DNA from: Patescibacteria group bacterium
GTDB taxonomy: Bacteria; Patescibacteriota; Patescibacteriia; UBA2591; UBA6264
Direction: 5' to 3'
Length of the DNA: 18,531 bases
Assembly (NCBI GenBank): GCA_028713575.1
Contig: JAQTOB010000011.1
Coordinates: 1-18,531, forward strand
Shown here: positions 1 through 16,058 of the stretch, in pieces
Position numbering within the stretch: position 1 is the first letter of the stretch
Layout of the letters: each line of letters starts with the position of its first letter
Position numbers and translations under genes: made by a program
The notes under the pieces: model-generated
What the model was told of the DNA's origin: nothing
Database searches by the model: none
Seen by the model: only the letters and a program-made list of their open reading frames with translations

Positions 1-1392
1 AAGACATCTTGCGCCTAATAAACACCCCGTTTCCTCTGGTTTAAATGCTTGGCAAGATTTTATTTTGTCTCCAACTTCCCGATAGACAAGTCGTTGAAAG
101 ATAGCGGCGTCAATAGTGAATCTTTGTCCCATAAAACGGAATCCCTTAATTTCTTTTTCCCTATCCGTTTGAATTGATGCTTCAAGAATCGGCATTGAAT
201 TGATTTGTGGTGGCTCCAGGGTTTTTGTTTTATTGATAAAAGTAATAAGTTTATTCTTGTCGCTTGATACCGACTGAATTGTTGTATTTGCACCATATAC
301 TCTCTCAACCAAGTCTTTGAACTGATAATAAGTAATATCATCACTCTTGCCGACAAAGAAATTTACCGGCTCGTAAATTTTATTCCAGCTAGACTGATTG
401 TTTTCTTTATTTAACGCAAGCGTAATAAGCAATGCCGATTTTACCTCATCATCACTTTTCATTCTGAAAGTAAGACGGCCATACCACATCATTGATTTGA
501 AATAGGTCTTTAATTGTTCTGTTCTGTCATAATGGCCTCTTGGAATATACTGCGAATAATCTTCTTTTAATGCTTCTAGCGGTTGTGGCCCTTGCGGAGT
601 GTCAATCATCACATCCTCTCTGCTGCCGATATTCATTACAGGGGACTTTGCCGTGCCTTGATGTGCCTCAATAAGCGCCAATTCTTGATTGACTTCGTTT
701 ATGACAATTGGCGGAATACCAACCGAAGGATCTAACAGCCTGCTACCAACTGTAAAAAATCCGACATTTCTTTTAGCAGCATTTTCCCATTCTGTTCCTT
801 TCAGATTGTCATATTGGTTCAATGATTCGGAAAGCATACCGACATTAAGCTGTTTTAATTCAGCTGCCAATTCTTGCTCCTCAAGTTGTTTGAGCAAGAA
901 ATCAAACATTAAATGGTAGTTATGAAGTATGGAGTCGGTTGTGATAAAACTCGGCGTATACATATACCGATTTGATTCGTAAAGCGGGAAAAATTCATTA
1001 TGATAAGCTGGTTTGGTTACAAAAGCATTTTTTACAAGCAGATTTTTCTCCGCATCAGAAAAAGTAAAATCATTCGCGTTTGTAACATTGCTTAAATTTT
1101 GACTCACAGAATAAGTCGGGACCTTCGGGCTAATATTTACCGCGACTTCCTCGTAAGTCGCGAACTTGGAAGCGAATGCGACAGCTGGTTTATAAATATC
1201 TTCAACGGATTTCTCAATAATTTCTTGGCCCGATTTCGGCAGGGCAAAATAAACAGCCAAGATAATAATAATAACGACTCCTAAAATACCAGAAATTATC
1301 CAAACTTTTTTCTTAGATTTTGGCTCCAGCATAATTGGCGGCACTTGTTGGGAACTTTCCGGTACTAATTGATTAAAATTTTGATTGTCCAT
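1..1392 (-). CDS. DUF3160-like protein with one N-terminal TM helix; start codon at 1392..1390, C-terminus lies beyond the left window edge (464 codons open)
   Basis: Absent from the ORF track because it has no in-window stop. Reverse complement from ATG at 1392 reads MDNQNFNQLVPESSQQ...KKVWIISGILGVVIIIILAVYFAL...YESNRYMYTPSFITTDSILHNYHLMFDFLLKQLE...YIPRGHYDRTEQLKTYFKSMMWYGR...GFRFMGQRFTIDAAIFQ. I translated every 60-nt line down to position 1 and found no stop. The DUF3160 (PF11369) assignment is from remembered motifs only. Confidence 0.75.
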   Translation of the reverse strand, partial: MDNQNFNQLVPESSQQVPPIMLEPKSKKKVWIISGILGVVIIIILAVYFALPKSGQEIIEKSVEDIYKPAVAFASKFATYEEVAVNISPKVPTYSVSQNLSNVTNANDFTFSDAEKNLLVKNAFVTKPAYHNEFFPLYESNRYMYTPSFITTDSILHNYHLMFDFLLKQLEEQELAAELKQLNVGMLSESLNQYDNLKGTEWENAAKRNVGFFTVGSRLLDPSVGIPPIVINEVNQELALIEAHQGTAKSPVMNIGSREDVMIDTPQGPQPLEALKEDYSQYIPRGHYDRTEQLKTYFKSMMWYGRLTFRMKSDDEVKSALLITLALNKENNQSSWNKIYEPVNFFVGKSDDITYYQFKDLVERVYGANTTIQSVSSDKNKLITFINKTKTLEPPQINSMPILEASIQTDREKEIKGFRFMGQRFTIDAAIFQRLVYREVGDKIKSCQAFKPEETGCLLGARCL

Positions 1393-1458
1393 ATTTTTTA
1401 TTCCTTCTCGACTAAAAAGTTTTAGCCGTTAAAAAAATTAAATTATTATTTATTAAAC

Positions 1459-1570
1459 TTTACAACAGAGGTCACTTTACAACAGGGGCCCGTCCCCCTT
1501 ACAACAGGGCCTGTCCCCCGAAATCATCGCCCTTTTACAACAGGGGTCTGTCCCCCTAAATCATCGCTCT
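1459..1570. repeat. Irregular tandem array of four units: TTACAACAG followed by a GC hairpin (GGGG-N-C-N-GTCCCC); the last two units also carry AAATCATCGC
   Basis: TTACAACAG occurs at 1460, 1477, 1499 and 1535 (spacing 17, 22 and 36 nt). Hairpins are GGGGCCCGTCCCC, GGGCCTGTCCC and GGGGTCTGTCCCC. The array lies upstream of the minus-strand DUF3160-like start. Confidence 0.7.
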
Positions 1571-1630
1571 AAAACCTGCATCAATAAAGTGTTTTAGGAT
1601 GATTTTTCAAATTTAGAACTATTTTGACTA
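1545..1630 (-). repeat. Copy 1 of an ~86-nt conserved intergenic element (copy 2 at 17810..17895, same orientation)
   Basis: Colinear conserved blocks shared with 17810..17895: CTGTCCCCCTAAA, ACC..CATCAA.AAAG.GTTTTA and TTAGAACTA.TTT, with matching spacing. Roughly two thirds identical by eye. Confidence 0.6.
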
Positions 1631-1652
1631 TTGAAATAAAAATTTTTTTAAT

Positions 1653-1721
1653 TGGCGGAGAGGGTGGGATTCGCCAGGCCATTCGACCTGGCGCCCCGTC
1701 GGATGACGGGATGAACCCCCG
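1653..1721 (-). pseudogene. GC-rich patch of tRNA 3'-end-like fragments ending ...CGAATCCCAC-CCTCTCC-G-CCA
   Basis: Minus strand reads CGGGGGTTCATCCCGTCATCCGACGGGGCGCCAGGTCGAATGGCCTGGCGAATCCCACCCTCTCCGCCA. It has three T-arm-like motifs. The final 21 nt look like half a T-loop, a T-stem 3' strand, an acceptor 3' strand, G73 and CCA. No canonical T arm can be folded. Confidence 0.5.
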
Positions 1722-1748
1722 AAAAAAATTATCTAGCTTTTTTAATAT

Positions 1749-1836
1749 TGGCGGTGGGGGCGAGAATCGAACTCGCATGCCCCTTGCGGGACCCTGGTTT
1801 TCGAGACCAGTGCCTTACCGTTCGGCACACCCCACC
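1749..1836 (-). tRNA. tRNA-Ser(CGA), class II, CCA encoded
   Basis: Hand-folded cloverleaf: acceptor GGTGGGG/CCCCACC, D arm GCC..GGC, anticodon arm CTGGT-CTCGAAA-ACCAG, long variable arm with a CCC-GCAA-GGG hairpin, T arm GCGAG-TTCGATT-CTCGC, discriminator G, CCA. Total 88 nt. Confidence 0.9.
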
Positions 1837-1864
1837 TTTTAAAAATTATTTTCGTATTCAATTT

Positions 1865-1897
1865 GACCGTCCGATTCAACCGCTCTCGCACCTCTCC
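1865..1897 (-). pseudogene. tRNA-Ser-like 5' fragment (acceptor 5' strand, D arm, 5' strand of anticodon stem)
   Basis: Minus strand reads GGAGAGG-TG-CGA-GAGCGGTTGAA-TCG-G-ACGGTC. The D-loop GAGCGGTTGAA is the same as in E. coli tRNA-Ser(UGA). GGAGAGG is the exact complement of CCTCTCC at 1657..1663. The fragment starts on the nucleotide after the GNAT stop codon. Confidence 0.6.
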
Positions 1898-2323
1898 TTA
1901 TTTAATTTTAATCGCTTTTCCTAAAAACCAACAGTCGTGACCAAACCATTGTTTTTTTAAAAAATAGCATTCATTAAACCCCATTTTTAAATAAAAATCT
2001 TTGGCTTTATACCTTTTTAAGCTCCAACACCATAATTTGTTTATTTTTTCTCTCCGGCATTTTTTCTCGGCAAACCTCACCAATTCCTTGCCCACTCCCG
2101 GCCTATTAGAAACCAAAGAATAAATTTCATAAGAACCAGCCGCCGGCACTAATCCTATAACTCCAAGGCATTTATTATTTTCCAAAGCCAGATAATAATG
2201 TTTCTTTTCTATATGTTTCTTAATAATATCTTCGTTTGAAAAATGAAAATTCCTTGTGTCTATTTTTTTTACTATTGATTTAATTTTAATAATATCTTTA
2301 ATTGTTGCTAATCTGATTTTCAT
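1898..2323 (-). CDS. GNAT-family N-acetyltransferase
   Basis: 141-aa ORF with a GNAT-like core (LALENNKCLGVIGL...RPGVGKELVRFAEKKCRRE...YLKMGF). Its start overlaps the upstream gene's end by 26 nt. Confidence 0.65.
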   Translation of the reverse strand: MKIRLATIKDIIKIKSIVKKIDTRNFHFSNEDIIKKHIEKKHYYLALENNKCLGVIGLVPAAGSYEIYSLVSNRPGVGKELVRFAEKKCRREKINKLWCWSLKRYKAKDFYLKMGFNECYFLKKQWFGHDCWFLGKAIKIK

Positions 2324-3590
2324 AGTTATCTTTTAAAACTATCCTCAGCCCGATAATTAACCAAAAAACAACAGCCAGATCATTCTTAAAATACGGCGTA
2401 TCAACCAAGCCATGGACCAAAATACAAACCATCGCGCCCATGACTGCGCCATTTAAAATTATATCTCTATTTTCCAAATTTTTAAACCCTTGTTTGAAAA
2501 ACCTTATTAAAATCCAAACAAAAACAATCAAACCAACCAAGCCCACTTCCAGCCAAATGGCCAAAAACAGATTATGCGGATATGGCTGAGGCGGAGCATA
2601 GAAATTTCTTCCGTCACGAGCGATAAAACTATTGGCCTGATAATCGGGGATTAGCCTTTCATATCCGTCCAATCCCGCGCCCAACACTGGTGAAACCTTC
2701 AACAGGGAAACAGCGCCGGACCAGATGTTCAAGCGGAACTGACCGGATAAATCCTGCAAAAGCGCCTTTTCCAAAAAATATTGGCGGGAAAATGGCCAGA
2801 CCATGATTAACAAAAAGGCAATAATCAACCCGGTTAAAACGTATTTCCTGGTTTTTTTCAGAACAACACCCCAAAAAGCCAAGCCAGCAAAAACGCCGAT
2901 AAGCGCGCCCTCTGAACGGGCTAAAACCAGCGCCCAAAAGGTAATAAAAAGAAAGACAAAACAACAAACAACTGACCGGATTTTCCCGCGGAAATTCACA
3001 ATCCCGCCCGCAACCAGAACGATAAGCGGCGCCAAATACAAACCCAAAAAATTAGGATGGGAAAACGGACCAGTCGCCCGCCATACCTGCGCCCGTCCCC
3101 AGACCTCGGTGCTGAAAACTCCCCCTCCCAGCCATTTTTGTAAAATCGCCCAAACAGAACAGCAGAAAGCGGAAAGGCCCAGGGTAAAAATCAATGTTTT
3201 TTTGTCCTGATCGTTTTTTATCAAATCCAACAAAACTATTAAAAACATAGCCGGCTCAATAAAATAGGCCCTCCAAACTCCGGCCGCGGCCCTTAATTCC
3301 GGCGCCACGAACATAGAGATAGTCGCCACAAGCAGCCACAAACAAATTAACCAGCGCCATCCGCTTAATAAATTGTTAAATCGTTTAATTGTTAAATTGT
3401 TAAATCGTTTTATCAGCCAAACCATAAAGAGAATCAAAATCATCAACTCCAAAAAAGTAAAAGGAATTCCGACAAACGAAAATTTTATCTGATAAGTCGG
3501 CAATAAAAACAATGTTAAATATAAAGCATGCCTCGGCTTAAACCAAGAGAGAAAAATGTAAAAAATAAAAAATAAAAAATAAAAAATCAT
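2298..3590 (-). CDS. O-antigen ligase (Wzy_C/RfaL-like) family polytopic membrane protein
   Basis: 430 aa with many TM segments. It carries the family-typical PHNLFLAIWLEVGLVGLIVFVW motif. An ATGA start/stop overlap links it to the flippase gene. Confidence 0.7.
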   Translation of the reverse strand: MIFYFLFFIFYIFLSWFKPRHALYLTLFLLPTYQIKFSFVGIPFTFLELMILILFMVWLIKRFNNLTIKRFNNLLSGWRWLICLWLLVATISMFVAPELRAAAGVWRAYFIEPAMFLIVLLDLIKNDQDKKTLIFTLGLSAFCCSVWAILQKWLGGGVFSTEVWGRAQVWRATGPFSHPNFLGLYLAPLIVLVAGGIVNFRGKIRSVVCCFVFLFITFWALVLARSEGALIGVFAGLAFWGVVLKKTRKYVLTGLIIAFLLIMVWPFSRQYFLEKALLQDLSGQFRLNIWSGAVSLLKVSPVLGAGLDGYERLIPDYQANSFIARDGRNFYAPPQPYPHNLFLAIWLEVGLVGLIVFVWILIRFFKQGFKNLENRDIILNGAVMGAMVCILVHGLVDTPYFKNDLAVVFWLIIGLRIVLKDNYENQISNN

Positions 3591-5032
3591 TTATTTGAAT
3601 TTAAAACGTCTTTTAGTAAATTCCTATCTATTCCCTTAAAAAAATAAAGCGACACCCCATAAACCGCTGCGCCCAAAACAATTGAAAAAACTAAGTTAAA
3701 ATTTTGACAAAGCATCAACACTCCTGACATTGCCAGGCCGGCCATCAAACTTTTAAAAAAAATTTTAAGATTGAACGAGATTCCGGTAGTCTTCCGAAAT
3801 AAAAGAAAGGCAAAAACGAACATCAGTATTTCGCTGAATACCGTTACCCAAGCCGCGCCCCAATAAGAATACTTCGGGATAAAAACGAAATAGCCTATTA
3901 AAGATAAAGCCATAACCAAAAAATAAAAGGGAAGTATTTGTTTTTGTTTTCCCAAGCCAACGGCCAAATTCTTAAAAAGTTCGGCAACAAACAAAATGCC
4001 GGCGGCGATAATTACCACTTTAAGGACGTCTCCGGCCGGACCGAATTCCCGTCCGCCGAGTAAAATCATTATCCTTCCCCCGAGAATAATTGTTCCCAAA
4101 ACCATAGGCAAGGAAATGGCGACCAAAAGGTCAAAACTTTTTTGCACGAGATTCTTTAGTCGCTGACTTTGTTTTTGTTGCCAAGCGCTCGTCATTTTCG
4201 GCAAAATCAATCCCAAAAAAAGCGGCGGCACCGTAATCAATACCTCTAAAATTCGGTAACAAGCGCCATATAATCCTACTTCTTCCGGTGAATGGTAAAA
4301 AGATAGAATCAAAGTGTCCGCCTTGAAATAAAAAACGTTTAGGACAATAGCTAAACCCACGGGCCAGGATTGTCTGATTATTTCCTTCCAAAAAGAAAAA
4401 TCAAAACCGAATTTCAAAGCTGTCTTTTTCGGAACGGAAAAAAATAATATCAAAAAATTTAACAAATGACCAAGTCCAAAAACGCTTAGGACCGCATAAA
4501 AACTGAAGTTGCGCCGGACGAAAATAATCATCAATGTCAGAGTAATTATCTTTCCCCAAATCTCTCCCCAAAAAATTTTCTTCGTCTGCAATGTCTGCTG
4601 ATAAAAAGCGGAAAGCATCTGGATCAAGGTGCAAAAGAAAAAAGAGCCGGATAAAATTCCTACGGCCGTTTTGACCATTCCAGAATAAGGAAGAAAAAGA
4701 CAAAAAACAAAGGCACCACCGTAAAAAATAAAAGCGGAAAAAAATCTTAAGGTAAAAATATTGTTTAAGACAAAACTCGTCCTAACCGGTCTCTCTTGTT
4801 CTGATAAAGAATCTGTCTCTCCTAGATAGCGTAAAGTTATCAAATAAAGGCCGAAATCGGCGATAATGCCGAAAATCTGCAAAAAAGCGACTGCCGTGGA
4901 ATAATAACCGTAATCTTTCGGCCCCAAATAGCGCATCAGCAGGGAAATGACGAAAAGTCCTAAAAACAAGGCTAAGACGCGACCGATTATTTGGATAATA
5001 AAATTTTTAGCAACAGAACGAGTAAGGGTCAT
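3587..5032 (-). CDS. MOP-superfamily polysaccharide/oligosaccharide flippase (Wzx-like)
   Basis: 481 aa with about 12-14 hydrophobic segments. It has the typical N-terminus (NFIIQIIGRVLALFLGLFVISLLMRYLGPKDYGYY). It is the first gene of the envelope operon. Confidence 0.7.
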   Translation of the reverse strand: MTLTRSVAKNFIIQIIGRVLALFLGLFVISLLMRYLGPKDYGYYSTAVAFLQIFGIIADFGLYLITLRYLGETDSLSEQERPVRTSFVLNNIFTLRFFSAFIFYGGAFVFCLFLPYSGMVKTAVGILSGSFFFCTLIQMLSAFYQQTLQTKKIFWGEIWGKIITLTLMIIFVRRNFSFYAVLSVFGLGHLLNFLILFFSVPKKTALKFGFDFSFWKEIIRQSWPVGLAIVLNVFYFKADTLILSFYHSPEEVGLYGACYRILEVLITVPPLFLGLILPKMTSAWQQKQSQRLKNLVQKSFDLLVAISLPMVLGTIILGGRIMILLGGREFGPAGDVLKVVIIAAGILFVAELFKNLAVGLGKQKQILPFYFLVMALSLIGYFVFIPKYSYWGAAWVTVFSEILMFVFAFLLFRKTTGISFNLKIFFKSLMAGLAMSGVLMLCQNFNLVFSIVLGAAVYGVSLYFFKGIDRNLLKDVLNSNK

Positions 5033-5075
5033 AATCCAATAATATCAGAAAAGGTCCGAATTATCAAGATAAAAC

Positions 5076-5104
5076 TTGACGTTATTTCAATGTTAGGTTA
5101 AACT
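5076..5104 (+). promoter_or_regulatory. Sigma70-like promoter TTGACG-N17-TAAACT for the SpoIID-like gene; possibly leaderless
   Basis: The -35 is at 5076..5081 and the -10 at 5099..5104. The ATG at 5112 is only 7 nt past the -10 and no Shine-Dalgarno is visible. Confidence 0.35.
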
Positions 5105-5111
5105 TAAATTT

Positions 5112-6638
5112 ATGTATAAAGTCTACGCAAAATTTTTTATTCTTATCTTATTTTTATCAGTATTCTTCTGTCCGGCAAAAACCGCTCAGGCTGGTACTTA
5201 TCAAGCGGAAAAAACCGAGCAAAGTTATGCCGGAATCATTAAATTGGATTTAGGACAAAGCCTTACTTTCTGGGTCAAATTTAAAAATCTAGGCCCTGAT
5301 CCATGGGAAGGAACCGGACCTGAGTATGTATTTTTAAGAACTATTTCTGGAATGAGGAGCAAGCTGGTCCATTCTAGCTGGTACAACGACCACATCCCCA
5401 ATCGGGTTAATCCCGTCTCCACTATTTATCCCGGAGACGAGGCTTTATTTAGATTCGCTTTATCCGCACCACGAACTGGCGGAACCCATTGGGAAAAATT
5501 CCAACTTTATGCCGGGACCTCTCCCATCCCGGGCGGTGAAATTGAAATTGCTGTAAAAAGTGTCGGCGAAATTAGTGAGCCGGAAATCATTGAACCGGTT
5601 ACTCCTGTCATCCCAACTCAACCCTCTATCCCAGAAGTAACATCACCCTTAGAAAAAACTTGGTGGCAAAACATTCCTACTTCTCCGAATATTATTGATA
5701 ATCCTTACTGGCCAAATCTACCTGACGGTCCGGAAATAAAAGTCGGGTTGCTTTATGTTGAAGAAACGGAAAAAAATAACAATTTGCCCTTTCAAATATC
5801 TTCTTTAAACAATCAATCTTATAATATTTTAGACCAAGATGATAAGCTGTTGGTGAAAAATACTGCTGGGGAAATAATAGAAATTGATTATGATTATAAA
5901 ACAAATCGCTATTTTTTAAATGACAGTCAAGGAAAAAGATTGTTAATGTCCGATTCGTATTTTAAGGTTTCCGCTCCGGAACCAGTCATTTTTAAAATTA
6001 ATTCTTGGCAAAACGGTCCATTTTGGGGAGAAAATGTTAATGACAATGAATTTCGAGGCGACTTAGAAATTAAATATAATTCTTCCACTGAACGTCTCTG
6101 GCTGATAAACCAATTGCCCCTGGAAGATTATGTTAAAAGCATCGCCGAAGTCGGCGATGGTTCCCATGCGGAATTTTTAAAAGCTCAGGCCATAGCGGCC
6201 AGGACTTACGCCTTGTTTCGTTATTTTACTCCGAAATACACCAATACTTCTGACGGTGAAGCGTTTTTCACTGTTCAATCCACCCAGGCCGACCAGGTTT
6301 ATCGCGGTTATCAAAAAGAATTAAGAGCACCGAACATGATTCAAGCGACCGAACAGACTAAAGGAGTCATCGCCACCTATCAAAACGACCCCATTCTTGC
6401 TTATTATTTTGCCCAATCAGATGGACAAACCCGAGACTCCTATTCAGCTAAAATGACCTGGGCTCCGGTTGATTATTTAATCGCTAAAGCCGACCCTCCA
6501 TGTGAAGGGAAAACTCTAACCGGCCATGGCGTCGGCTTGTCCCAAATCGGCGGCATCAATGCCGCCAATCAAGGCGCTAATTATTCTCAAATCCTCAAGT
6601 ATTATTATACCGGCATTGAATTGACAAAAATGTATTAA
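5112..6638 (+). CDS. Secreted SpoIID/LytB-domain protein with an N-terminal Ig-like/NBR1-like region
   Basis: It has a signal peptide (MYKVYAKFFILILFLSVFFCPAKTAQA). The C-terminal half carries SpoIID motifs (AQAIAARTYAL, YYFAQSDGQTRD, GHGVGLSQIGG). Confidence 0.8.
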   Translation: MYKVYAKFFILILFLSVFFCPAKTAQAGTYQAEKTEQSYAGIIKLDLGQSLTFWVKFKNLGPDPWEGTGPEYVFLRTISGMRSKLVHSSWYNDHIPNRVNPVSTIYPGDEALFRFALSAPRTGGTHWEKFQLYAGTSPIPGGEIEIAVKSVGEISEPEIIEPVTPVIPTQPSIPEVTSPLEKTWWQNIPTSPNIIDNPYWPNLPDGPEIKVGLLYVEETEKNNNLPFQISSLNNQSYNILDQDDKLLVKNTAGEIIEIDYDYKTNRYFLNDSQGKRLLMSDSYFKVSAPEPVIFKINSWQNGPFWGENVNDNEFRGDLEIKYNSSTERLWLINQLPLEDYVKSIAEVGDGSHAEFLKAQAIAARTYALFRYFTPKYTNTSDGEAFFTVQSTQADQVYRGYQKELRAPNMIQATEQTKGVIATYQNDPILAYYFAQSDGQTRDSYSAKMTWAPVDYLIAKADPPCEGKTLTGHGVGLSQIGGINAANQGANYSQILKYYYTGIELTKMY

Positions 6639-6656
6639 TGAAAAAAGACAAATATA

Positions 6657-6685
6657 AAATCCCGCTTTATTAAGCGGGATTTTTT
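6657..6685 (+). terminator. Rho-independent terminator after the SpoIID-like gene
   Basis: AAAA-CCCGCTT-TATT-AAGCGGG-ATTTTTT: a 7-bp GC-rich stem followed by a T run. Confidence 0.75.
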
Positions 6686-6696
6686 AATACAAAATC

Positions 6697-6724
6697 AAAA
6701 CGGGTCTGATAACCGACCCGTTTG
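6697..6724 (-). terminator. Terminator hairpin for the convergent minus-strand DksA-like/thiI unit
   Basis: The stem is AAAACGGGTC / GACCCGTTT. On the minus strand the stem is followed by TTTTGATTTT. Confidence 0.6.
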
Positions 6725-6743
6725 AAAAAAATTTCCTCCTTAA

Positions 6744-7244
6744 TTAACTTCCGTTATGGCCGTTGCCATTATGGGAATTCTTACATTTCACGCAGTGTGC
6801 GGTATGGGGCACCTCTTCGACTCTTTCCCTGTCGATAAGACAACCGCATTCCCCACAAAAAACGGCTTGACCAGGAAAGGAAATGAGTTTTTGCTTCATT
6901 TCCATTGATTTTCGCCACACTTTATTACATCGTATGGCAAGGCAACAATTCTTTTCCACTTCGTAGCTATTCCCCCCGTCCGCCATCTTCGGATCGGGAG
7001 GTTCTGAACTTCCCATTTCATCGGTGAAAAATTTTCTGTTGGTTATTCTTCTAGTCAACTGTATTCTGGAAATTTGCTTATCCAGAGCTACGGCCTTAAA
7101 AATAGCCTCTTCTCTAATTTTCGGAGTTAAATTCATGACATTCACCATGAATTTTTTTCTCTCCTCACTAGTGAAATTCACTAGTGCCAGTGCCGGGAAG
7201 TCGGATGCCTGCGTACCTGTCATACTTAATACCTGTTGAAACAT
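6744..7244 (-). CDS. TraR/DksA-type C4 zinc-finger protein
   Basis: The C-terminal CGECGCLIDRERVEEVPHTAHCVKCK matches the C-x2-C-x17-C-x2-C DksA/TraR finger. A strong SD (AAGGAGGA) lies 6 nt upstream of the ATG. Confidence 0.65.
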   Translation of the reverse strand: MFQQVLSMTGTQASDFPALALVNFTSEERKKFMVNVMNLTPKIREEAIFKAVALDKQISRIQLTRRITNRKFFTDEMGSSEPPDPKMADGGNSYEVEKNCCLAIRCNKVWRKSMEMKQKLISFPGQAVFCGECGCLIDRERVEEVPHTAHCVKCKNSHNGNGHNGS

Positions 7245-7307
7245 GAAAGTCCTCCTTTGTTATAAGTTAAATATCTATTTAAATTCTGCTCTATTTTTTG
7301 AAAAATG

Positions 7308-8465
7308 TCAATGCCCCGTTTTCACCCTCTCTAAATTATTTATGGCCACGGAAATCAGATTTTCGTTAACCAGCCCCTTTTCCATTTTCTTAACTTGTTT
7401 TATGTTACCCTTTGTACACGGATGTTTAGGTAAACGTCCCTGGCAATAAAATGTCGTCTGAACGATAGAAATGTCATAAGTTCCAATTTCTCTAGCCCTT
7501 TTAATGGTCTCTTGCTTGTCAAAACCTATCAATGGTCTTAACACAAGCAAGTCCGTTCTTTCTTCGGTTATTTTCATATTCTCAATGGTCTGTGAGGCTA
7601 CCTGTCCCAAGCTATCGCCGGTAATTAGGGCGTTAATATATTTCTTTTGGGCAATTTCCGAAGCAATTTTAAACATGGTTCTTTTACAAATAAGACAACA
7701 ATCCCTTGTCCCTTCTTCTAAAATGGACTTTTGGATTTCCTTAAAAGGAATTAAATATAACGTTGATGGTCCTTGATATTTACTTAAAATGGTTACTATT
7801 TTTTTAACTTTTTCAATTACTTCTTTTTCATGGTCAAGGTAGGAATAGAAGTGAATAAAAGAAACCTTCATCCCTCTTTTCATCATCTGCCAAGCCGCCA
7901 CTGGCGAATCAATGCCATCGGAAAGTAGGACTAGTCCCTGCCCGCTGACGCCAATAGGCAAACCACCCGGCCCGCTTATTTTCTCCAAATAAACAAAAGC
8001 CTTGTTATCCACTATTTCAATAAAAATGGTAATGTCTGGATTTTCCAGCTTAACCTTTTTGCGTAAATTGTTGACTACGAATTCGCCAACTATTTTATTT
8101 ATTTCCTGAGAAGTTAAATTAAAATTTTTATTGGAGCGCTGAGTAAAAATTTTAAATGTCTTAAACTCTTCCTCTCGCAAAATTTCAAAAACCAGCCTTT
8201 CAATCTCCCCAACATCTTGTTTTGTTTCTCGGACAAAAGAGAAATTAGCCAAACCAAAAACATTTTTCAGTTTTTTTTCTATTTCTTTTTTATTTTTTTC
8301 TCCCAAAAGCGTCAACTCAATAATGATCCGCCCTGAAATTCTTTTTATCTTGCTAAAAAAATCCCTATCCAAAACCGTTCTGATATTTTCTATCAATTTT
8401 TCTTCAAAAAAACGGCGATTATTTCCTTTCAGCCCGATTTCGTTATAATGACAAACTATACTCAT
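7308..8465 (-). CDS. thiI: tRNA 4-thiouridine synthase ThiI (THUMP plus PP-loop domains, no rhodanese domain)
   Basis: The N-terminus YNEIGLKGNNRRFFEEKLIENI is typical of ThiI. The PP-loop region reads LLSDGIDSPVAAW (canonical SGGxDS). Length is 385 aa. Confidence 0.85.
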   Translation of the reverse strand: MSIVCHYNEIGLKGNNRRFFEEKLIENIRTVLDRDFFSKIKRISGRIIIELTLLGEKNKKEIEKKLKNVFGLANFSFVRETKQDVGEIERLVFEILREEEFKTFKIFTQRSNKNFNLTSQEINKIVGEFVVNNLRKKVKLENPDITIFIEIVDNKAFVYLEKISGPGGLPIGVSGQGLVLLSDGIDSPVAAWQMMKRGMKVSFIHFYSYLDHEKEVIEKVKKIVTILSKYQGPSTLYLIPFKEIQKSILEEGTRDCCLICKRTMFKIASEIAQKKYINALITGDSLGQVASQTIENMKITEERTDLLVLRPLIGFDKQETIKRAREIGTYDISIVQTTFYCQGRLPKHPCTKGNIKQVKKMEKGLVNENLISVAINNLERVKTGH

Positions 8466-8549
8466 ATTAACATCTTAACATTTAAGGACCAAAACATCAA
8501 TTATTCATTCCCGATTACCCAATCCCTAATCATCTGTGGATAAATCATC

Positions 8550-8579
8550 TTGCCAAAAATATTATTTTTATGTTATTAT
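8550..8579 (+). promoter_or_regulatory. Sigma70-like promoter TTGCCA-N18-TGtTATTAT (extended -10)
   Basis: CTTGCCAAAAATATTATTTTTATGTTATTAT closely resembles the tRNA-Phe promoter at 15180..15208 (CTTGCCAAAATATGATTTATTTGTTAATAT). Confidence 0.5.
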
Positions 8580-8592
8580 AAACATACTTTAA

Positions 8593-8686
8593 CGAGTCGG
8601 CTATGGAAAACTGTCAATTCATAAAAAATATTCACTTTCCCAAGGTTATTGGTTTGTCTTGGATTGAAAACTCAAAGGCCGACTCC
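8593..8686 (+). ncRNA. Candidate structured RNA or leader: ~94-nt imperfect hairpin closed by GAGTCGGC/GCCGACTC
   Basis: It starts about 10 nt after the predicted transcription start. Nested helices are GAGTCGGC/GCCGACTC, TCAATTC/GGATTGA and CCAAG/CTTGG. A weak hairpin plus T6 follows at about 8741..8757. No known family motif was recognised. Confidence 0.3.
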
Positions 8687-8793
8687 TCTTAATAAAAAAT
8701 AATTAAAAAAAATAAATAACAAATAATAAGTCGGCGGGCTGGATGTTGCCGCTTTTTTATAAAACTGAAAAATAAAAATAAGGAGGCGGAAAA

Positions 8794-8961
8794 ATGAATG
8801 ACGAAAAAAATAAGGCCGAGACTAGATGCTATAAAAGCATCCAAAGAAAAATCAATCAGATTATAAAAAGGGGGATATATTGTAAAGCCCCCCAAAAAAA
8901 TAAAAAAAAATATCTGATTGAATTAATCTGTTTAAAAAATTCCATGATTTCCGGCAAATAA
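8794..8961 (+). CDS. Small ORF, 55 aa, basic, low complexity (MNDEKNKAETRCYKSIQRKINQIIKRGIYCKAPQKNKKKYLIELICLKNSMISGK)
   Basis: Below the ORF-track size cut-off. A consensus SD (AAGGAGG, 8780..8786) lies 7 nt upstream of the ATG. It contains homopolymer runs, so the reading frame is fragile. Confidence 0.35.
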   Translation: MNDEKNKAETRCYKSIQRKINQIIKRGIYCKAPQKNKKKYLIELICLKNSMISGK

Positions 8962-8982
8962 AAAAGGAGGCATAGAGACACA

Positions 8983-9159
8983 ATGGAAATATGTATCACT
9001 AATCTAGACAATGAATTTGAAAACCTTTCTCGCAGAAAATCCGCTATTATGAAAAAATTAGAGCGGAGTCGTAATTCTGCGAAAAGGATAAACCTAGAAA
9101 AGGAAATCGCGCAAATAGAAAAAAAAATAGCGCTAATTTCCAAAAAAATAAAAAATTAA
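8983..9159 (+). CDS. Small ORF, 58 aa, predicted coiled coil (MEICITNLDNEFENLSRRKSAIMKKLERSRNSAKRINLEKEIAQIEKKIALISKKIKN)
   Basis: An AAGGAGG SD at 8964..8970 lies 12 nt from the ATG. The residues show heptad-like periodicity. A terminator follows directly. Confidence 0.5.
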   Translation: MEICITNLDNEFENLSRRKSAIMKKLERSRNSAKRINLEKEIAQIEKKIALISKKIKN

Positions 9160-9172
9160 GGGGGAGTATATT

Positions 9173-9201
9173 AAAAAGCCGCCACTAAGACGGCTTTTTT
9201 T
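9173..9201 (+). terminator. Rho-independent terminator after the small ORFs
   Basis: AAAAAGCCG-(9-nt loop)-CGGC followed by a T7 run. Confidence 0.7.
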
Positions 9202-9282
9202 CTTATTTTCTTCTTGATTTCCTTAATTTTTCTGATAAAATTATCATTGTTCTTTCCTCATATCAAATGTCAATGTGTTATT

Positions 9283-9353
9283 CGGGACGTAGTGTAATGG
9301 CAGCACGAGTCTTTTGGGAAGATTTAGCGGGAGTTCGAATCTCCCCGTCCCGA
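9283..9353 (+). tRNA. tRNA-Pro(TGG), CCA not encoded
   Basis: Acceptor CGGGACG/CGTCCCG, D arm GTGT..GCAC, anticodon arm AGTCT-TTTGGGA-AGATT, T arm GGGAG-TTCGAAT-CTCCC, discriminator A. Total 71 nt. Confidence 0.9.
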
Positions 9354-9382
9354 TTTAAAAATTAATATCGTTATAACTCGGC

Positions 9383-9420
9383 AAAAAAAACCCGCCAGAG
9401 GCGGGTCCGCCTTTGGCGGA
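9383..9420. terminator. Tandem GC hairpins (CCCGCC-AGA-GGCGGG, TCCGCC-TTT-GGCGGA); strong terminator for the minus-strand antiporter operon
   Basis: On the minus strand CCCGCC-TCT-GGCGGG is followed by T8. On the plus strand the hairpins follow tRNA-Pro but have no T tail. Confidence 0.65.
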
Positions 9421-9574
9421 AATCAAAATTCAGGTCTATGTACCCCGACCAACATCTTAATGAGAGCCTTAATGCCTTGATGAGGTGGAACCTCGTCAAG
9501 ACCATATCAAGACCATCAAGGTCTCGCCCTCTAATCAATCCAATTATTTTAAAACCAGATAAACTGGCCTTTTA

Positions 9575-10528
9575 TTACCCCCTGATAATCAGATAAACTA
9601 TGTAAATAACGTACAGACTGACGAAAATAATTCCCTGTTTGCGGGTCAATTTGGCTTTTCCTCCGGTCAAAGTAAAAACAAAAAGAAGAAAAGTAACAAG
9701 TAAAACGACTAAAATATCCGTATTTATTTTTGTGGAAACGGGCAATGGTCTGATTAAAGAAGTAATGCCCAAAACCCAAAAAATGTTGAAAATGTTGGAA
9801 CCGACGATGTTGCCTACAGCGATGTCGCTGTTTTTTTTCGCCGCCGCCACCACTGAGGTGGCTAATTCTGGTAAAGAGGTCCCAATGGCTACAACAGTTA
9901 AACCAATTAAGGCCTCACTCACTCCCAGCGACTGAGCGATTAAAAGCGCGCCGTCAACTATCCACTTTCCTCCCAAGACTAGACAACCCGTTCCAGCCAA
10001 AATCATCAAACCGGAAACAGGATACGAAAACTTCTTTATTTTATCGTCCATGTCCACATCCTTGTGCCTGATGCTTATGATGTAATATAAAAAAATCAAA
10101 AAAAACAGGAGCATAACCAGGCCGTCCGTCCGATCCAAAAAGGCCTCAAAAGTATTATTCAAAAAAACGTCACTAGCTAAAATCCATAAAACCACTACGG
10201 CCAAAACCGCCAGAGGAATCTCCTTCCAAATTGTATTATTTTTCACGATCAATGGCCTAACAATCATGGACAAACCGAGAATCAACAAGATATTAATAAT
10301 ATTGCTTCCCAGGATATTTCCCAGGGCGATATCAGCCGTTCCCTTGATGTTAGCAAGAACATTAACAACAAACTCTGGCATAGAAGTGCCGAAGGAAACG
10401 ATTGTCAAGCCGATAACGATCGTAGAAATGCCCGTTTTTTTTGCTAAAGAGGAAGCGCCGTCCACCAGCCAATCCGCCCCTTTGATGAGGAGAAAAAACC
10501 CAATGATAAATAAAAAGTAAGAAAGCAT
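9575..10528 (-). CDS. Ca2+/Na+ antiporter, CaCA family (YrbG-like)
   Basis: 317 aa with about 10 TM segments. Both alpha-repeat signatures are present: GNILGSNIINILLILG and GNIVGSNIFNIFWVLG. Confidence 0.85.
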   Translation of the reverse strand: MLSYFLFIIGFFLLIKGADWLVDGASSLAKKTGISTIVIGLTIVSFGTSMPEFVVNVLANIKGTADIALGNILGSNIINILLILGLSMIVRPLIVKNNTIWKEIPLAVLAVVVLWILASDVFLNNTFEAFLDRTDGLVMLLFFLIFLYYIISIRHKDVDMDDKIKKFSYPVSGLMILAGTGCLVLGGKWIVDGALLIAQSLGVSEALIGLTVVAIGTSLPELATSVVAAAKKNSDIAVGNIVGSNIFNIFWVLGITSLIRPLPVSTKINTDILVVLLVTFLLFVFTLTGGKAKLTRKQGIIFVSLYVIYIVYLIIRG

Positions 10529-10537
10529 ATTCTTTTT

Positions 10538-11785
10538 TTATTCGTATCTTAAGGCCTCAATCGGACTTTTTTTAGAAGCTTTTTTCGCCGGATAAAGGCC
10601 GAATATTATGCCAATAGAGCCGGCCACGCCCAATCCCAAAAGAATGGAGGGAAAAGAAATGACAAATTGCCAATTCTGGCTGAGTTGCTTTGCCAAGACT
10701 AAAGAAGCCAGATAAGACAAACCTATCCCCAGGCCGACGCCGATCAAACCGCCAACAATCGTTAAAATAATTGACTCTATTAAAAAATGAACCATAATAT
10801 CTTTTCCCCTCGCCCCTATGGCTTTTCTTAATCCTATTTCCCATGTTTTTTCAGTTACCGCCACCAGCATGATATTCATAATTCCCACTCCACCAACCAC
10901 TAAGGAAATGGCCGCGACTGAGGTAAGTAAAACGGTCAAAATCCCCGTAATCAAACTAATGGTTTCAATCATTTCTTCCGAAGTGGTTATATGAAAATCG
11001 TCATCTTCCGGGTCATCAATATTATGTAAATCCCTTAATGTTAATTTAATGTCTTCTACCATATTGGGAACTGATTCTTCGTTCTTGGCCATTACGTGAA
11101 TCTCTTGATAATAATCTATTCCTAAGAGATACTTTTGGGCCGTGGTATATGGAATAAGCACGAATTTATCAATATCCATAAAGGAAGAAACTTGTCCTTT
11201 TGCCGGAAAAATTGCTACTACTTTGAAATATTTATCCTTGATTTTTATTTTTTCCCCCAAAGCGTCAGCCGTGCCAAAAAGATCTTCTTTTACTTTGGCG
11301 CCGATGACCGCCACCGCGGCTAAAGATTTTATGTCTTCTTCGGTAAAATATTCTCCTTCTCCCGGATAAATATTATAAAGTTTGGCCATCCAATCGGCAG
11401 TCCATCCCAAAATCGTCGGTTTATATGTTTCTCCTTTATAAGAAACACTTCCCGGAACCATCAAGGATGGGGTGATTTCTTCCAAGTCGGGAACATTGTT
11501 TTTATTTTTTAGAGCCTTGATGTCTCTTTCCTTTAAAGAATCATTAAATAAAGTATCGGCCATGTCTTGAGGGCCCTTAACTTCTTTGCCGGGATTGATC
11601 TGAACGAAATTTCCGCCTAAAGACTTTACTTCGTTTAAAATTAGACTTTCAGCTGACTGCCCAATGGACATAATTAGGATAATGGAAGTAATGCCGATGA
11701 CAATGCCTAAAATTGTCAAAAATGAACGCGCTTTGTTCGTTTTTAACCCGATTAAAACCGTTTTAAGGGAATATTTTATTTTCAT
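10538..11785 (-). CDS. MacB/FtsX-type ABC transporter permease with periplasmic MacB_PCD domain
   Basis: 415 aa. An N-terminal TM is followed by a ~230-aa extracytoplasmic domain and a C-terminal FtsX-like three-TM bundle (GGVGIMNIMLVAVTEKTWEIGLRKAIGARGKDI). Confidence 0.85.
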   Translation of the reverse strand: MKIKYSLKTVLIGLKTNKARSFLTILGIVIGITSIILIMSIGQSAESLILNEVKSLGGNFVQINPGKEVKGPQDMADTLFNDSLKERDIKALKNKNNVPDLEEITPSLMVPGSVSYKGETYKPTILGWTADWMAKLYNIYPGEGEYFTEEDIKSLAAVAVIGAKVKEDLFGTADALGEKIKIKDKYFKVVAIFPAKGQVSSFMDIDKFVLIPYTTAQKYLLGIDYYQEIHVMAKNEESVPNMVEDIKLTLRDLHNIDDPEDDDFHITTSEEMIETISLITGILTVLLTSVAAISLVVGGVGIMNIMLVAVTEKTWEIGLRKAIGARGKDIMVHFLIESIILTIVGGLIGVGLGIGLSYLASLVLAKQLSQNWQFVISFPSILLGLGVAGSIGIIFGLYPAKKASKKSPIEALRYE

Positions 11786-11851
11786 ATGCCAAATTTGTAG
11801 AAATTTTCGGGCTCATTTTGTAGTGAAAAAAATTTCGCTACAAATTTGAGC

Positions 11852-11870
11852 ACCGAGCACTCAATTTATT
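11852..11870. repeat. Left arm of a perfect 19-bp inverted repeat bracketing the GIY-YIG ORF
   Basis: ACCGAGCACTCAATTTATT is the exact reverse complement of 12101..12119. It overlaps the GIY-YIG stop codon at 11866..11868. Confidence 0.9.
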
Positions 11871-12095
11871 CCTCTAAGCTATATTTAAAACGCTCTTTGA
11901 GATGACGAATTGCTTGACCTCTTTGTTTTAATTTTTTTTCTCGATTTCTCGCATCTTTTTCTGATTTGTAGGCTTCGTAATAAATAAGTTCGGGGTTTTT
12001 CTTTCTATGTTCTTTAAATCTTCTTTTTAAATCATCGGTGTAGCCTATATAGATTTTTTTCTTTATCTGATTTTTAATTATTACACGTAATACAT
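11866..12095 (-). pseudogene. Small GIY-YIG (URI-domain) nuclease gene with a 1-nt frameshift at codon 5
   Basis: The minus frame reads ...IIKNQIKKKIYIGYTDDLKRRFKEHRKKNPELIYYEAYKSEKDARNREKKLKQRGQAIRHLKERFKYSLEE*. ATG TAT TAC GTG (MYYV) at 12095 is one base out of frame and runs into TAA TAA. No ATG, GTG or TTG start exists in the main frame. Confidence 0.7.
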
Positions 12096-12100
12096 AAAAA

Positions 12101-12119
12101 AATAAATTGAGTGCTCGGT
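12101..12119. repeat. Right arm of the 19-bp inverted repeat
   Basis: AATAAATTGAGTGCTCGGT lies 5 nt upstream of the MYYV ATG. Confidence 0.9.
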
Positions 12120-12177
12120 AATGATTTTATTATTGAAAAATTTTCGCCCTTCGGGCTTAAAAATTCAGACAAAATCG

Positions 12178-12894
12178 CTATTTAAACAATCCGTCTTTAG
12201 CATAATGGCGATTGATTACTTTTTCGTCGCTTTCAATCAGGCCGTCTTTTAATTTGATGATTCTTTTGGCCATTTCTGAAGTATATTTTTCATGTGTAAC
12301 CATTATAATGGTATGCCCTTTTTCATTAAGATTTTGAATTATATCCATCACTGCTTGACCGGATTTTGAATCAAGATTTCCGGTTGGCTCATCGGCAAAA
12401 ATAACATCCGGGTCATTAACTAAAGCTCGGGCAATGGCCACTCTTTGTTTTTCTCCTCCGGAAAGTTGAGACCGTTCATGTTTTAAACGATGTGAAAGAC
12501 CCACCATTTCAAGCGCCTTTTTTGCTTTATCTTCCCATAATAATTCTTTTATCCTGGAATAATAAAGAGGCAATTTAACATTATCTAAAACATTGGTTCG
12601 GGGAAGCAAATTAAAAGTTTGAAAAATAAATCCCATTTTTTCATTCCTAATGCGGGCCAATTCGTCATCGCTGTATTGATTCATTGACTTGCCTTGAAAA
12701 AAATATTCCCCTTTGGTCGGCCGATCTAAAAATCCTAAAATGTGAAGCAGGGTTGATTTGCCGGAACCAGAAGGACCCATAATCGCCACAAATTCTCCTT
12801 TCTCAACAATAAAAGAATCCCCCCTTAAAGCCGGGGTTTTTATTTCTTCTTCTCCGTAAATTTTCTCTACTTTTTCTATTTTAATCAAAGGCAT
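12178..12894 (-). CDS. ABC transporter ATP-binding protein (MacB/LolD-type ATPase)
   Basis: Walker A is GPSGSGKST, the signature is [15 protein letters not shown], and Walker B is [12 protein letters not shown]. Confidence 0.9.
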
Positions 12895-12897
12895 ATC

Positions 12898-14616: not shown

Positions 14617-14645
14617 AAATTATTCACTTAGATTAGATTTCCGTT

Positions 14646-14674
14646 ATTATAACCATTAAATGACCTATTGTCAA
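14646..14674 (-). promoter_or_regulatory. Consensus sigma70 promoter TTGACA-N17-TATAAT for the adaptor/ABC/antiporter operon
   Basis: On the minus strand the -35 is at 14674..14669 and the -10 at 14651..14646, about 30 nt upstream of the ATG at 14616. Confidence 0.6.
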
Positions 14675-14684
14675 GAAAACCCAC

Positions 14685-14700
14685 TTGCCAAATGTGGCAA
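14685..14700. promoter_or_regulatory. 16-bp palindrome TTGCCA-AATG-TGGCAA between the divergent promoters (possible operator)
   Basis: The half-sites are perfect 6-bp inverted repeats, located just upstream of the operon -35. Confidence 0.3.
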
Positions 14701-14719
14701 ATAATGCCCCTTTCTCTAT

Positions 14720-14747
14720 TTGACAAAGATGATAAAAATGATAGAAT
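14720..14747 (+). promoter_or_regulatory. Sigma70-like promoter TTGACA-N16-TAGAAT (TG at -15/-14) for tRNA-Gly
   Basis: The -35 is at 14720..14725 and the -10 at 14742..14747. tRNA-Gly begins at 14806. Confidence 0.55.
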
Positions 14748-14805
14748 CATTATGCTGTAGGTATCGTAATAATGTTTTGTCTTTTCTTATCTCCCTAAAA
14801 ATTAT

Positions 14806-14876
14806 GCGGGATTCGTACAATGGTAGTATGCCACTCTTCCAAGGTGGAGATGCCAGTCCGATTCTGGTATCCCGCT
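14806..14876 (+). tRNA. tRNA-Gly(TCC), CCA not encoded
   Basis: Acceptor GCGGGAT/ATCCCGC, anticodon arm CCACT-CTTCCAA-GGTGG, T arm GCCAG-TCCGATT-CTGGT, discriminator T. Total 71 nt. Confidence 0.9.
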
Positions 14877-15247: not shown

Positions 15248-15538
15248 GCCGAGGTAGCTCAGTGGTAGAGCAAATGGCTGGTTTTCGGCCCTTTTAATGG
15301 TAACATTAAATGTAAACCAGGTGAAATCGGGGAAACCTGATGAAAAAAAGGCAATCCCGAGCCAAGCCCTTTTAGAGGGAAGGTGTAGAGACTATCCCGT
15401 AGGGAGTACTCTAAATATTTAGAGGAAGCGCCTGGAATCCTAATAATTTAGGATTATGATATAGTCCGAACCTTTGGGAAACCAAAGTAAAAATTAAGGA
15501 AAACCATTGTGTCGGCAGTCCGATTCTGCCCCTCGGCA
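15248..15538 (+). tRNA. tRNA-Phe(GAA) interrupted in the anticodon loop by a 219-nt group I intron; CCA not encoded
   Basis: Exon 1 (15248..15279) is GCCGAGG-TA-GCTC-AGTGGTA-GAGC-A-AATGG-CT. Exon 2 (15499..15538) is GAAAA-CCATT-GTGTC-GGCAG-TCCGATT-CTGCC-CCTCGGC-A. Joined, they give a canonical 72-nt cloverleaf with loop CU-GAA-AA. Confidence 0.85.
15280..15498 (+). ncRNA. Group I self-splicing intron, IC3-like (tRNA-intron type), with no internal ORF
   Basis: Core strings are nearly identical to the Anabaena tRNA-Leu and Azoarcus tRNA-Ile introns: GGCAATCCCGAGCCAAGCC and GGAAGGTGTAGAGACTAT. P7 pairs GACTAT with ATAGTC. There are GNRA-capped hairpins (TTTAATG-GTAA-CATTAAA, CTTTGG-GAAA-CCAAAG). 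P1 pairs exon GGCU with the guide GGCC, placing a U.G wobble at the 5' splice site. The terminal G is at 15498. Confidence 0.85.
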
Positions 15539-15552
15539 TCTGTTAACGATTA

Positions 15553-15629: not shown

Positions 15630-16058
15630 ATGCAAACCAAAAAACAAAAAGCAATTCAATTAAGAAAGCTAGGTAAAAGTTACAATGAAATTACAAAAAG
15701 ATTGGGGGTCCCTAAAAGTACTTTATCTACATGGCTTAAAGGGGTTAAAATGCCTCCGATGGTCCAACAAAAAATTTTAAATAACGCTCAAAAAATCTGG
15801 GCTAAAAGCATCACTGATTACAATAAAAAAAGAGCGTCTTTAATCAAAGACAAATGGCAAAAATTTGAGAAAAAAATCAGCAAAAAAATCAATAAATTAT
15901 CAACGGAAAAAATTAAATTGATTGGCACGGCCCTTTATTGGGCAGAAGGTTATAAAAAAACGAGATGGACTGCAATGTTTTGTAATTCTGATCCGGATAT
16001 GGTTCATTTAATGATGAAATTCTTTCGAGAAATATGTCTGATACCGGAAAAAAACTAA
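15630..16058 (+). CDS. N-terminal part of an HTH plus LAGLIDADG-like homing-endonuclease-like protein (frame 0)
   Basis: It has a resolvase-type HTH (LRKLGKSYNEITKRLGVPKSTLSTWLKG). LIGTALYWAEGYK resembles a LAGLIDADG motif. The ORF ends at a TAA directly after GAA AAA AAC. Confidence 0.55.
   Translation: MQTKKQKAIQLRKLGKSYNEITKRLGVPKSTLSTWLKGVKMPPMVQQKILNNAQKIWAKSITDYNKKRASLIKDKWQKFEKKISKKINKLSTEKIKLIGTALYWAEGYKKTRWTAMFCNSDPDMVHLMMKFFREICLIPEKN

Follow-up and report, generated by a model that had tools for sequence, protein, structure and literature searches.

A dead tRNA-Ser(CGA) gene around an intact one in a Patescibacteria contig, and a two-hairpin module found in tRNA loops beside a small GIY-YIG gene

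Why should a complete tRNA-Ser(CGA) gene lie between what look like the two halves of another tRNA-Ser gene? The question is raised by an arrangement of 245 nt in an 18,531 nt stretch of DNA from a Patescibacteria group bacterium (GenBank assembly GCA_028713575.1, contig JAQTOB010000011.1, positions 1 to 18,531 of the forward strand). This whole stretch is called the window; coordinates given without a contig label are window positions, and the locus is read on the minus strand. The original prediction, made from the sequence alone, offered scars of repeated integration and excision, a nested or split tRNA joined at the RNA level, and an assembly chimera. The analysis described here showed that the outer pieces are the remains of a second, dead tRNA-Ser(CGA) gene. 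In our assessment it is quite probable that this older gene was broken by a small mobile element, of which a palindromic module remains in the dead T loop, and that the inner tRNA is its working replacement.

Structure of the locus

The layout and coordinates of all parts were confirmed when the sequence was re-read. Right behind the TAA stop codon of a GNAT acetyltransferase gene (1898..2323, minus strand; Pfam PF00583), which lies outside the element and served as the conserved left anchor for orthologous loci, is the 5' piece (1865..1897, minus strand; GGAGAGGTGCGAGAGCGGTTGAATCGGACGGTC). It comprises nt 1–33 of the former gene, namely the 5' strand of the acceptor stem, the D arm, the 5' strand of the anticodon stem and C32. 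There follow on the same strand a 28 nt AT-rich spacer (1837..1864), the intact tRNA-Ser(CGA) with an encoded CCA (1749..1836; called by ARAGORN and scored at 53.9 bits by the Rfam tRNA model), a 27 nt AT-rich spacer (1722..1748, read from the sequence) and a GC-rich patch of 69 nt (1721..1653) with the terminal letters CCTCTCC-G-CCA. Below, the inner tRNA is referred to as type C, and two other tRNA-Ser(CGA) sequences, found in relatives, as types A and B.

Three degenerate T-arm-like motifs had been reported in the patch, where there is actually a single T arm, GGGGG-TTCA ... AAT-CCCAC, its loop split by a 40 nt module of two hairpins, here named M. The patch begins with a part of the dead gene (1712..1721, minus strand) made up of a C, the 5' strand of the T stem (GGGGG) and the leading half of the T loop (TTCA); it matches GTGGGTTCG of the type A and B genes at 7/9 positions. 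M itself (1672..1711, minus strand) reads TCCCGTC-ATCC-GACGGGG, CG, CCAGGTC-GAAT-GGCCTGG, CG and was identified by pattern, fold and covariation. The remainder (1653..1671, minus strand) consists of the second half of the T loop (AAT), the 3' strands of the T stem (CCCAC) and acceptor stem (CCTCTCC), the discriminator G and CCA. The perfect 7 bp complementarity between GGAGAGG and CCTCTCC that had drawn attention to the locus, with the following G and CCA, is present.

Further contigs were obtained from JGI, Logan and ENA samples by look-up of the GNAT protein, one of them 517 kb long. The arrangement is identical base for base in L001–L004 and L006–L008, as far as each contig extends. L048, which came from a later DNA scan, is identical from the 3' patch onward, and L005, a strain variant from sample SRR12486999 with an identical GNAT protein, has a nearly identical locus. 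Eight independent assemblies share the arrangement, and assembly error is ruled out.

A dead second tRNA-Ser(CGA) gene

The 5' piece is identical at 32/33 positions to nt 1–33 of the intact type B tRNA-Ser(CGA) of a relative (8841–8931 of L010; L010/L011), and the last 19 nt of the locus are identical at 19/19 positions to the 3' end of the same gene and also match type A of L009. It follows from the match to type B that the outer gene was of the same isoacceptor as the inner one and not a different Ser species. The tRNA pattern is lost after C32 in the 5' piece, and about 30 nt (approximately nt 34–63 of type B) are absent, comprising the rest of the anticodon loop, the 3' strand of the anticodon stem and the variable arm. 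The kept parts correspond to nt 1–33 and about nt 48–76, with the gap filled by the 143 nt of spacer, intact tRNA and spacer. The T loop is interrupted by M at TTC(A/G)^AATCC, between T-loop positions 57 and 58. The remark that the breaks fall at the anticodon and T loops was correct in that they lie in or beside both loops, while the integrase or intron origin attached to it was unsupported.

No tRNA gene was obtained from the joined outer halves. ARAGORN did call a tRNA-Ser(CGA) when nt 34–63 of type B were added and M was removed, both changes being required. On the locus as it stands, ARAGORN (anticodon-loop introns up to 400 nt, lowered thresholds, tmRNA mode) called the inner tRNA alone, apart from a spurious low-scoring tRNA-Lys on the opposite strand, and Rfam searches of 1400..2100 at E values up to 10 found nothing relevant except the inner tRNA. 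Three substitutions distinguish the locus in L005, all within the outer pieces; two of them break A5-U68 in the acceptor stem and G11-C24 in the D stem, with no compensation. What surrounds the inner tRNA is the residue of a second, dead tRNA-Ser(CGA) gene and not a split tRNA. The proposal of halves still joined at the RNA level fails on the missing anticodon-stem 3' strand and variable arm, on the joined halves giving no tRNA and on the uncompensated stem changes in L005.

Two further candidates were considered and rejected. For a functional class II tRNA-Ser formed by the outer pieces, the acceptor stem and G73 are present, but the anticodon and variable arms are incomplete, the T arm is split and the models call no tRNA. 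For an intron-containing or split tRNA, removal of the insert gives no tRNA in the window or in any of 69 module copies. No intron family was matched in 1400..2100 by Rfam at E values up to 10; bulge-helix-bulge junctions were not formally scanned. The same search does detect a group I intron elsewhere in the window, at 15270..15488.

Bacterial tRNAs may carry group I introns. In the window, a tRNA-Phe(GAA) gene at 15248..15539 (plus strand) has such an intron in its anticodon loop (Rfam RF00028, 94.5 bits) and is called by ARAGORN only once the intron has been removed. An open reading frame (ORF) with an HTH domain lies downstream of it at 15630..16058.

The inner tRNA

The type C tRNA-Ser(CGA) is identical in all the independent assemblies that reach it, including the variant L005. 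Beyond general Ser features it has no sequence relationship to types A and B, and no close match to it was present in any fetched locus. The type C tRNA is a working replacement copy of foreign appearance.

The two Ser-type sequences are the only ones in the window that encode CCA, as had been remarked, and the tRNAs for Pro, Gly, Val and Phe do not. This does not extend to a general rule: an encoded CCA was tried as a mark of element-borne tRNAs across loci and rejected, the frequencies of 16/47 and 14/60 not differing significantly (p = 0.28).

A partial resemblance to type C was seen in the relatives L093 and L094, where the DUF3160 protein encoded next to the locus is 85% identical. The tRNA upstream of their DUF3160 gene (721..810) is a tRNA-Ser(GGA), of which the acceptor (GGTGGGG...CCCCACCGCCA) and the following ATATT match the type C tRNA of the window; the remainder differs.

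The same site in related genomes

Orthologous sites were found via GNAT homologues with 82–86% identity (L009 and L010/L011). In L009 a single ordinary, intact tRNA-Ser(CGA) of type A stands directly behind the GNAT stop codon, and the 5' piece in the window abuts that stop codon exactly as the intact type A tRNA does. In L010/L011 the GNAT gene is followed by a decayed type A copy with its T loop interrupted by M, about 400 nt containing a frameshifted gene of the GIY-YIG type described below, an intact type B tRNA and unrelated downstream DNA. The site behind the GNAT gene thus occurs in three states, empty with an intact tRNA in L009, filled in L010 and a third state in the window. Synteny comparison had been proposed as a check on the locus, and its outcome is divided: one relative has an ordinary single tRNA-Ser, and the other has a broken and replaced gene with M.

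M occupies the same place in the dead type A copy of L010, where hairpin 2, relative to the window copy, shows a compensatory change from A-T to G-C. The sequence past the end of the dead tRNA (AATTAAA.A.TTTTTA) is common to the window and to L010 after the module. Since this sharing extends beyond the tRNA end, the two insertions of M are probably the same ancestral event. Synteny from the side of the DUF3160 gene did not help with the history, this side being rearranged in the relatives (HTH gene, tRNA-Ser(GGA), tRNA-Ala).

The 3' border of the dead gene carries another insert in L005 (1449..1567). This 103 nt sequence has 8 nt terminal inverted repeats (TCCTTCGC/GCGAAGGA) and is bordered by a direct repeat of 16 nt, CCCACCCCCTCCGCCA, corresponding to the 3' end of the dead tRNA. 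It is a further small element landing in the same wreck.

A palindromic module in tRNA loops

To determine the distribution of M, a search pattern fixing hairpin 1 was used. It matched 3 genome records and 73 metagenome contigs of Patescibacteria, giving about 70 related copies; none was found in viral contigs. The window has one occurrence, against zero expected by chance. The family layout, of about 40 nt, is CG, a 7 bp stem with an ATYC loop, CG, a 7 bp stem with a GRAT loop and a final CG. Both hairpins form in the DNA fold of the window copy. In an alignment of 36 distinct copies, pairing is kept at 99.2% of stem positions and seven pairs show compensatory changes, a result equalled by 0/500 shuffles, and in shifted registers of the alignment pairing falls to 25–51%. 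Little can be concluded from the invariance of hairpin 1, which was fixed by the search pattern; the same architecture also occurs with other hairpin-1 sequences.

G.T and A.C mismatches are equally rare in M, with no wobble bias towards either strand, the architecture is symmetric and the copy in L061 is a perfect 38 nt palindrome. Together these properties suggest a palindrome at the DNA level rather than an RNA element. A function of M at the RNA level was accordingly rejected, with no excess of G.T over A.C on either strand and with M inserted both along and against the tRNA sense strand.

The surroundings of M are highly regular. Of 49 unique clean copies, 26 have the context ..GGTTCG|M|AWTCC.. 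of a T loop in sense orientation, and for 13 it is ..GGAWTCG|M|AACC.., with the T loop read in antisense; TTCGAA is itself a palindrome. The rest follow a CG elsewhere, including the anticodon loops of tRNA-Arg(TCG) in L016 and L037, and in L081 M lies at the anticodon-loop site CTCG^AAAACC of a tRNA-Ser(CGA). In almost all copies CG flanks the 38 nt core on both sides (TTCG-core-CG-AA), which may be the product of a 2 nt staggered cut in TCGA followed by fill-in.

The tRNA copies that bear M are always broken, and the hosts cover at least 25 different isoacceptors. Deletion of M restored a tRNA across the junction in 0/69 copies, and a T-loop intron was rejected on this result. An intact tRNA is located within 400 nt of M in about 40/54 copies, mostly at a distance of 8–45 nt, and several contigs carry more than one copy of M (L016, L025, L032 and L081). 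In many cases the neighbouring live tRNA is duplicated exactly beside M. The duplicate runs from the loop site to the gene end in L029 (19/19), L082 (19/19), L032 (17/17) and L071 (16/16), and from the anticodon loop in L037 (40/40); exact duplicates of the 5' part occur in L036 (55/55) and L014 (51/51). The duplicated segment is often exact, and its boundary is always at the CG^A site.

Single hairpins were also observed besides M. The dead 5' copies of tRNA-Gln upstream of the GIY-YIG gene in L099 (about 490..700) and L103 (about 590..700) carry extra ones of the type GTC-ATCC/GAAT-GAC in the D loop and the anticodon arm, suggesting that single hairpins may move alone.

A GIY-YIG gene that accompanies the module

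In a set of 150 ORFs near M from about 55 loci, GIY-YIG was the sole recurrent family; no integrase, recombinase or transposase family recurred, and the window locus has no integrase. The gene, here named G, is a stand-alone ORF of about 85 aa; in at least 13 M loci it lies no farther than about 120 nt from M (tblastn). It matches Pfam GIY-YIG (PF01541) with E values of 1e-12 to 1e-16, the solved structures closest to it are those of the stand-alone UPF0213 proteins 1YWL and 1ZG2, and it consists of the catalytic domain only, of the UPF0213/YhbQ type.

Two cassette layouts were distinguished. In type I the order is tRNA(1-57), M, G and an intact tRNA (e.g. L036, L010, L016 and L081), and in type II it is an intact tRNA, G, GGTTCG-M and tRNA(58-76) (e.g. 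L071, L024 and L073). Shorter versions without G occur, sometimes in tandem (L032 and L082). The host T loop in L082 reads GGTCCG and the half-loop before M reads GGTTCG; this difference indicates that the half-loop is part of the unit and not of the host. In L101 the direct repeat around the unit of G, GGGTTCG and M comprises tRNA 58-76 and about 36 nt downstream. Exact repeats of tRNA 58-76 or 1-57 flank the units of G and M in related loci, the window holding decayed parts only.

As loci located with M would be biased towards it, a reverse search was made with G, which gave 460 homologues at E < 1e-8; many of these lie on very short contigs. Five were retrieved, selected for long contigs and by no other criterion. 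In each of the five loci (three with tRNA-Gln, one with tRNA-Tyr and one with tRNA-Met) G is accompanied by an intact tRNA, a partial duplicate of a tRNA and, within a tRNA loop, a module of the M type. M travels with G, and the agent is not a classical tRNA-targeting integrase.

The reading frames of G in L024, L073, L010 and L036 are co-oriented with the tRNA and have no stop codon of their own. The frame continues either into GGTTCG and M, giving the tail ...GSSRHPTGRHV*, or into the initial nucleotides of the tRNA downstream.

Neither G nor a remnant of it is present in the window, the orthologous L010 having a pseudogene. A weak local alignment was found between the 28 nt spacer and the sequence from the module to the start of G in L081 (equalled by 1.1% of shuffles, five comparisons having been made). 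As a hint only, the spacer is possibly the leader remaining after loss of a module and GIY-YIG gene. The 27 nt spacer had no informative match elsewhere.

Origin of the locus

The preferred explanation, held with good though not full confidence, is that a small mobile element broke an older tRNA-Ser(CGA), whose wreck survives as the outer pieces, that the inner tRNA is the working replacement and that the locus is a composite, decayed scar of such cassettes. The ancestral tRNA-Ser(CGA) right behind the GNAT gene was inactivated, and a complete copy of foreign appearance now lies inside its remains. G, a predicted nuclease, would cut tRNA-loop DNA at (T)TCG^A, for example in the T arm of a tRNA gene (GGTTCGAATCC). 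Recombination, with the tRNA sequence serving as homology, would then copy the cassette into the site and bring in a tRNA part or a whole tRNA, leaving the host a live gene, and M would keep the redundant loop site disrupted. In the lineage of the window G would have been deleted later, and a second M at the anticodon-loop break was probably lost too. That tRNA-Ser(CGA) has two target sites, in the T loop and in its CGA anticodon loop, may explain its frequent hosting of the element.

Several observations weigh against this explanation. G is absent from the window; the locus is tied to the cassette by M itself and by the orthologous L010. The 5' break, which follows C32, falls 3 nt before the TCG^A site and has no M. 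Neither cassette layout explains a complete tRNA and both spacers in place of nt 34–47. The conservation of hairpin 1 arises partly from the construction of the search pattern. That G cleaves DNA at the proposed site and that G and M are mobile are predictions from sequence. Finally, the intact tRNA beside each cassette still has the presumed target, and self-cleavage would need to be avoided.

A broader proposal is made tentatively, at somewhat less than even odds: G and M may constitute an undescribed class of bacterial mobile element. It would combine a stand-alone GIY-YIG nuclease of the Slx1/YhbQ type with a 38 bp palindrome, target CG^A in the DNA of T and anticodon loops and spread by duplicating or overwriting tRNA segments. 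In this way it would serially replace tRNA alleles of Patescibacteria and leave nested wrecks.

Alternative explanations

Of the readings first offered, scars that destroyed one Ser gene came closest. There is a dead tRNA-Ser(CGA) with breaks in or near two loops, and the relatives L009 and L010 show the site in other states; what did not stand is a classical integrase as the agent. In its full form this alternative holds that repeated integration and excision by tyrosine integrases at tRNA-Ser loops left partial attachment-site (att) copies, M being a leftover core or arm site. Both broken loops are favoured by integrases, partial duplicates of the tRNA 3' end border inserts, as with the 16 nt repeat in L005, and hairpin 2 of M resembles an inverted-repeat core site. 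However, no integrase or recombinase family recurred among the ORFs near M or occurred in the window locus, the inserts between duplicates are merely 10–400 nt long and carry G instead, and M is located inside the loop rather than at an island end and is absent from the viral contigs. We regard this origin as improbable.

A second alternative is that the outer pieces function as RNA. The 245 nt would be transcribed, RNase P and RNase Z would free the inner tRNA, and the outer halves, or the piece of T arm, M and CCA, would act as a tRNA-like or regulatory RNA. The perfectly complementary acceptor strands with G73 and CCA kept, the 19 nt after M being the same as in a relative's live gene and the maintenance of the hairpins of M by compensatory change would all be accommodated. 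The loss of the anticodon-stem 3' strand and variable arm, the failure of ARAGORN and Rfam to call a tRNA for the outer pieces and the uncompensated breaks of A5-U68 and G11-C24 in L005 argue against it, as do the occurrence of M in both orientations to the tRNA sense strand with no wobble bias and the decay of the flanks of M in many loci, e.g. L010 and L036. On balance a function as RNA is very improbable.

The chance of a chimera or mis-join of two tRNA-Ser loci is close to nil and this reading is refuted: several Logan contigs do end inside or just past the locus, as at repeats, but eight independent contigs from different samples and pipelines, the 517 kb contig among them, agree base for base over the part each reaches, with flanks continuing on both sides.

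Comparison with known systems

Fragments of tRNA genes derived from integrative elements such as genomic islands and prophages have been discussed for prokaryotes (bioRxiv 10.1101/2022.07.05.498093). The loci described here resemble such scars in having partial dead tRNA copies next to an intact gene, a duplicate starting at a loop and a restored tRNA. They differ in that there is no integrase, the inserts are about 70–400 nt, duplications of the 5' and 3' parts of the tRNA are equally frequent and a palindromic module lies in the dead loop.

The nearest analogue in function is a free-standing GIY-YIG homing endonuclease such as phage T4 SegB, which lies in a tRNA gene cluster and for which a 2 nt staggered cut is reported (PMC2330249). 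The likeness to G is that of a small selfish GIY-YIG gene among tRNA genes with neighbouring tRNA sequence co-inherited, and a staggered cut would fit the CG duplicated around M. Unlike Seg proteins and I-TevI, G has no DNA-binding domains, is chromosomal in Patescibacteria rather than phage-borne and is associated with a palindromic module and tandem duplication of tRNA segments.

M resembles repetitive extragenic palindromic (REP) sequences and bacterial interspersed mosaic elements (BIMEs), and in this respect miniature inverted-repeat transposable elements (MITEs), in its short GC-rich imperfect palindromes, paired inverted hairpins, multiple copies and stems kept by compensatory change. 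In contrast to REP and BIME sequences, it has a defined target, following CG in tRNA-loop DNA, and a GIY-YIG partner; no transposase of the REP-associated tyrosine transposase (RAYT)/Y1 type recurred near M.

Split and permuted tRNA genes are known from Archaea (PMC3218864). The locus shares with these and with intron-containing tRNA genes the interruption of the anticodon and T loops and the complementary acceptor halves. Here, however, essential tRNA parts are missing, no intron model matches and removal of the insert gives no tRNA; the tRNA-Phe gene at 15248..15539 is a live comparison in the same window. No description of M or of the cassette was found in the literature searched, in which coverage of subscription papers was incomplete.

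Implications

The locus alone is a tRNA pseudogene of modest interest, the main interest lying in the element family. In genome annotation the outer pieces are best labelled a tRNA pseudogene carrying a repeat insertion, not a split or nested tRNA, and similar fragments will mislead tRNA counts in Patescibacteria genomes. The cassette of GIY-YIG gene, palindromic module and duplicated tRNA segment seems to land at TTCGAA in the T loop, the most conserved sequence in biology, and appears to carry spare tRNA parts as payment. Should G indeed cut there, this would provide a function for the poorly understood UPF0213/YhbQ nuclease family. It would also explain contig breaks at tRNA genes in these metagenomes and offer a route for horizontal exchange of tRNA genes among ultra-small bacteria.

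Other repeats in the window

Two further repeat types were observed. Between the tRNA locus and the DUF3160 gene, at about 1470..1570 (minus strand), there are three to four copies of a unit of about 21 nt, GGGGGACRGNCCCCTGTTGTAA, differing in copy number and sequence between the window and the otherwise near-identical contig L001. A different module of paired hairpins, CCCGCC-AGA-GGCGGG followed by TCCGCC-TTT-GGCGGA, was located at 9390..9428 (plus strand), 37 nt past the tRNA-Pro gene; possible identities are a bidirectional terminator and a second family of palindromic repeats. Similar CCGCC...GGCGG pairs adjoin tRNA fragments in L014 and L033/L078 and are also found downstream in L010.

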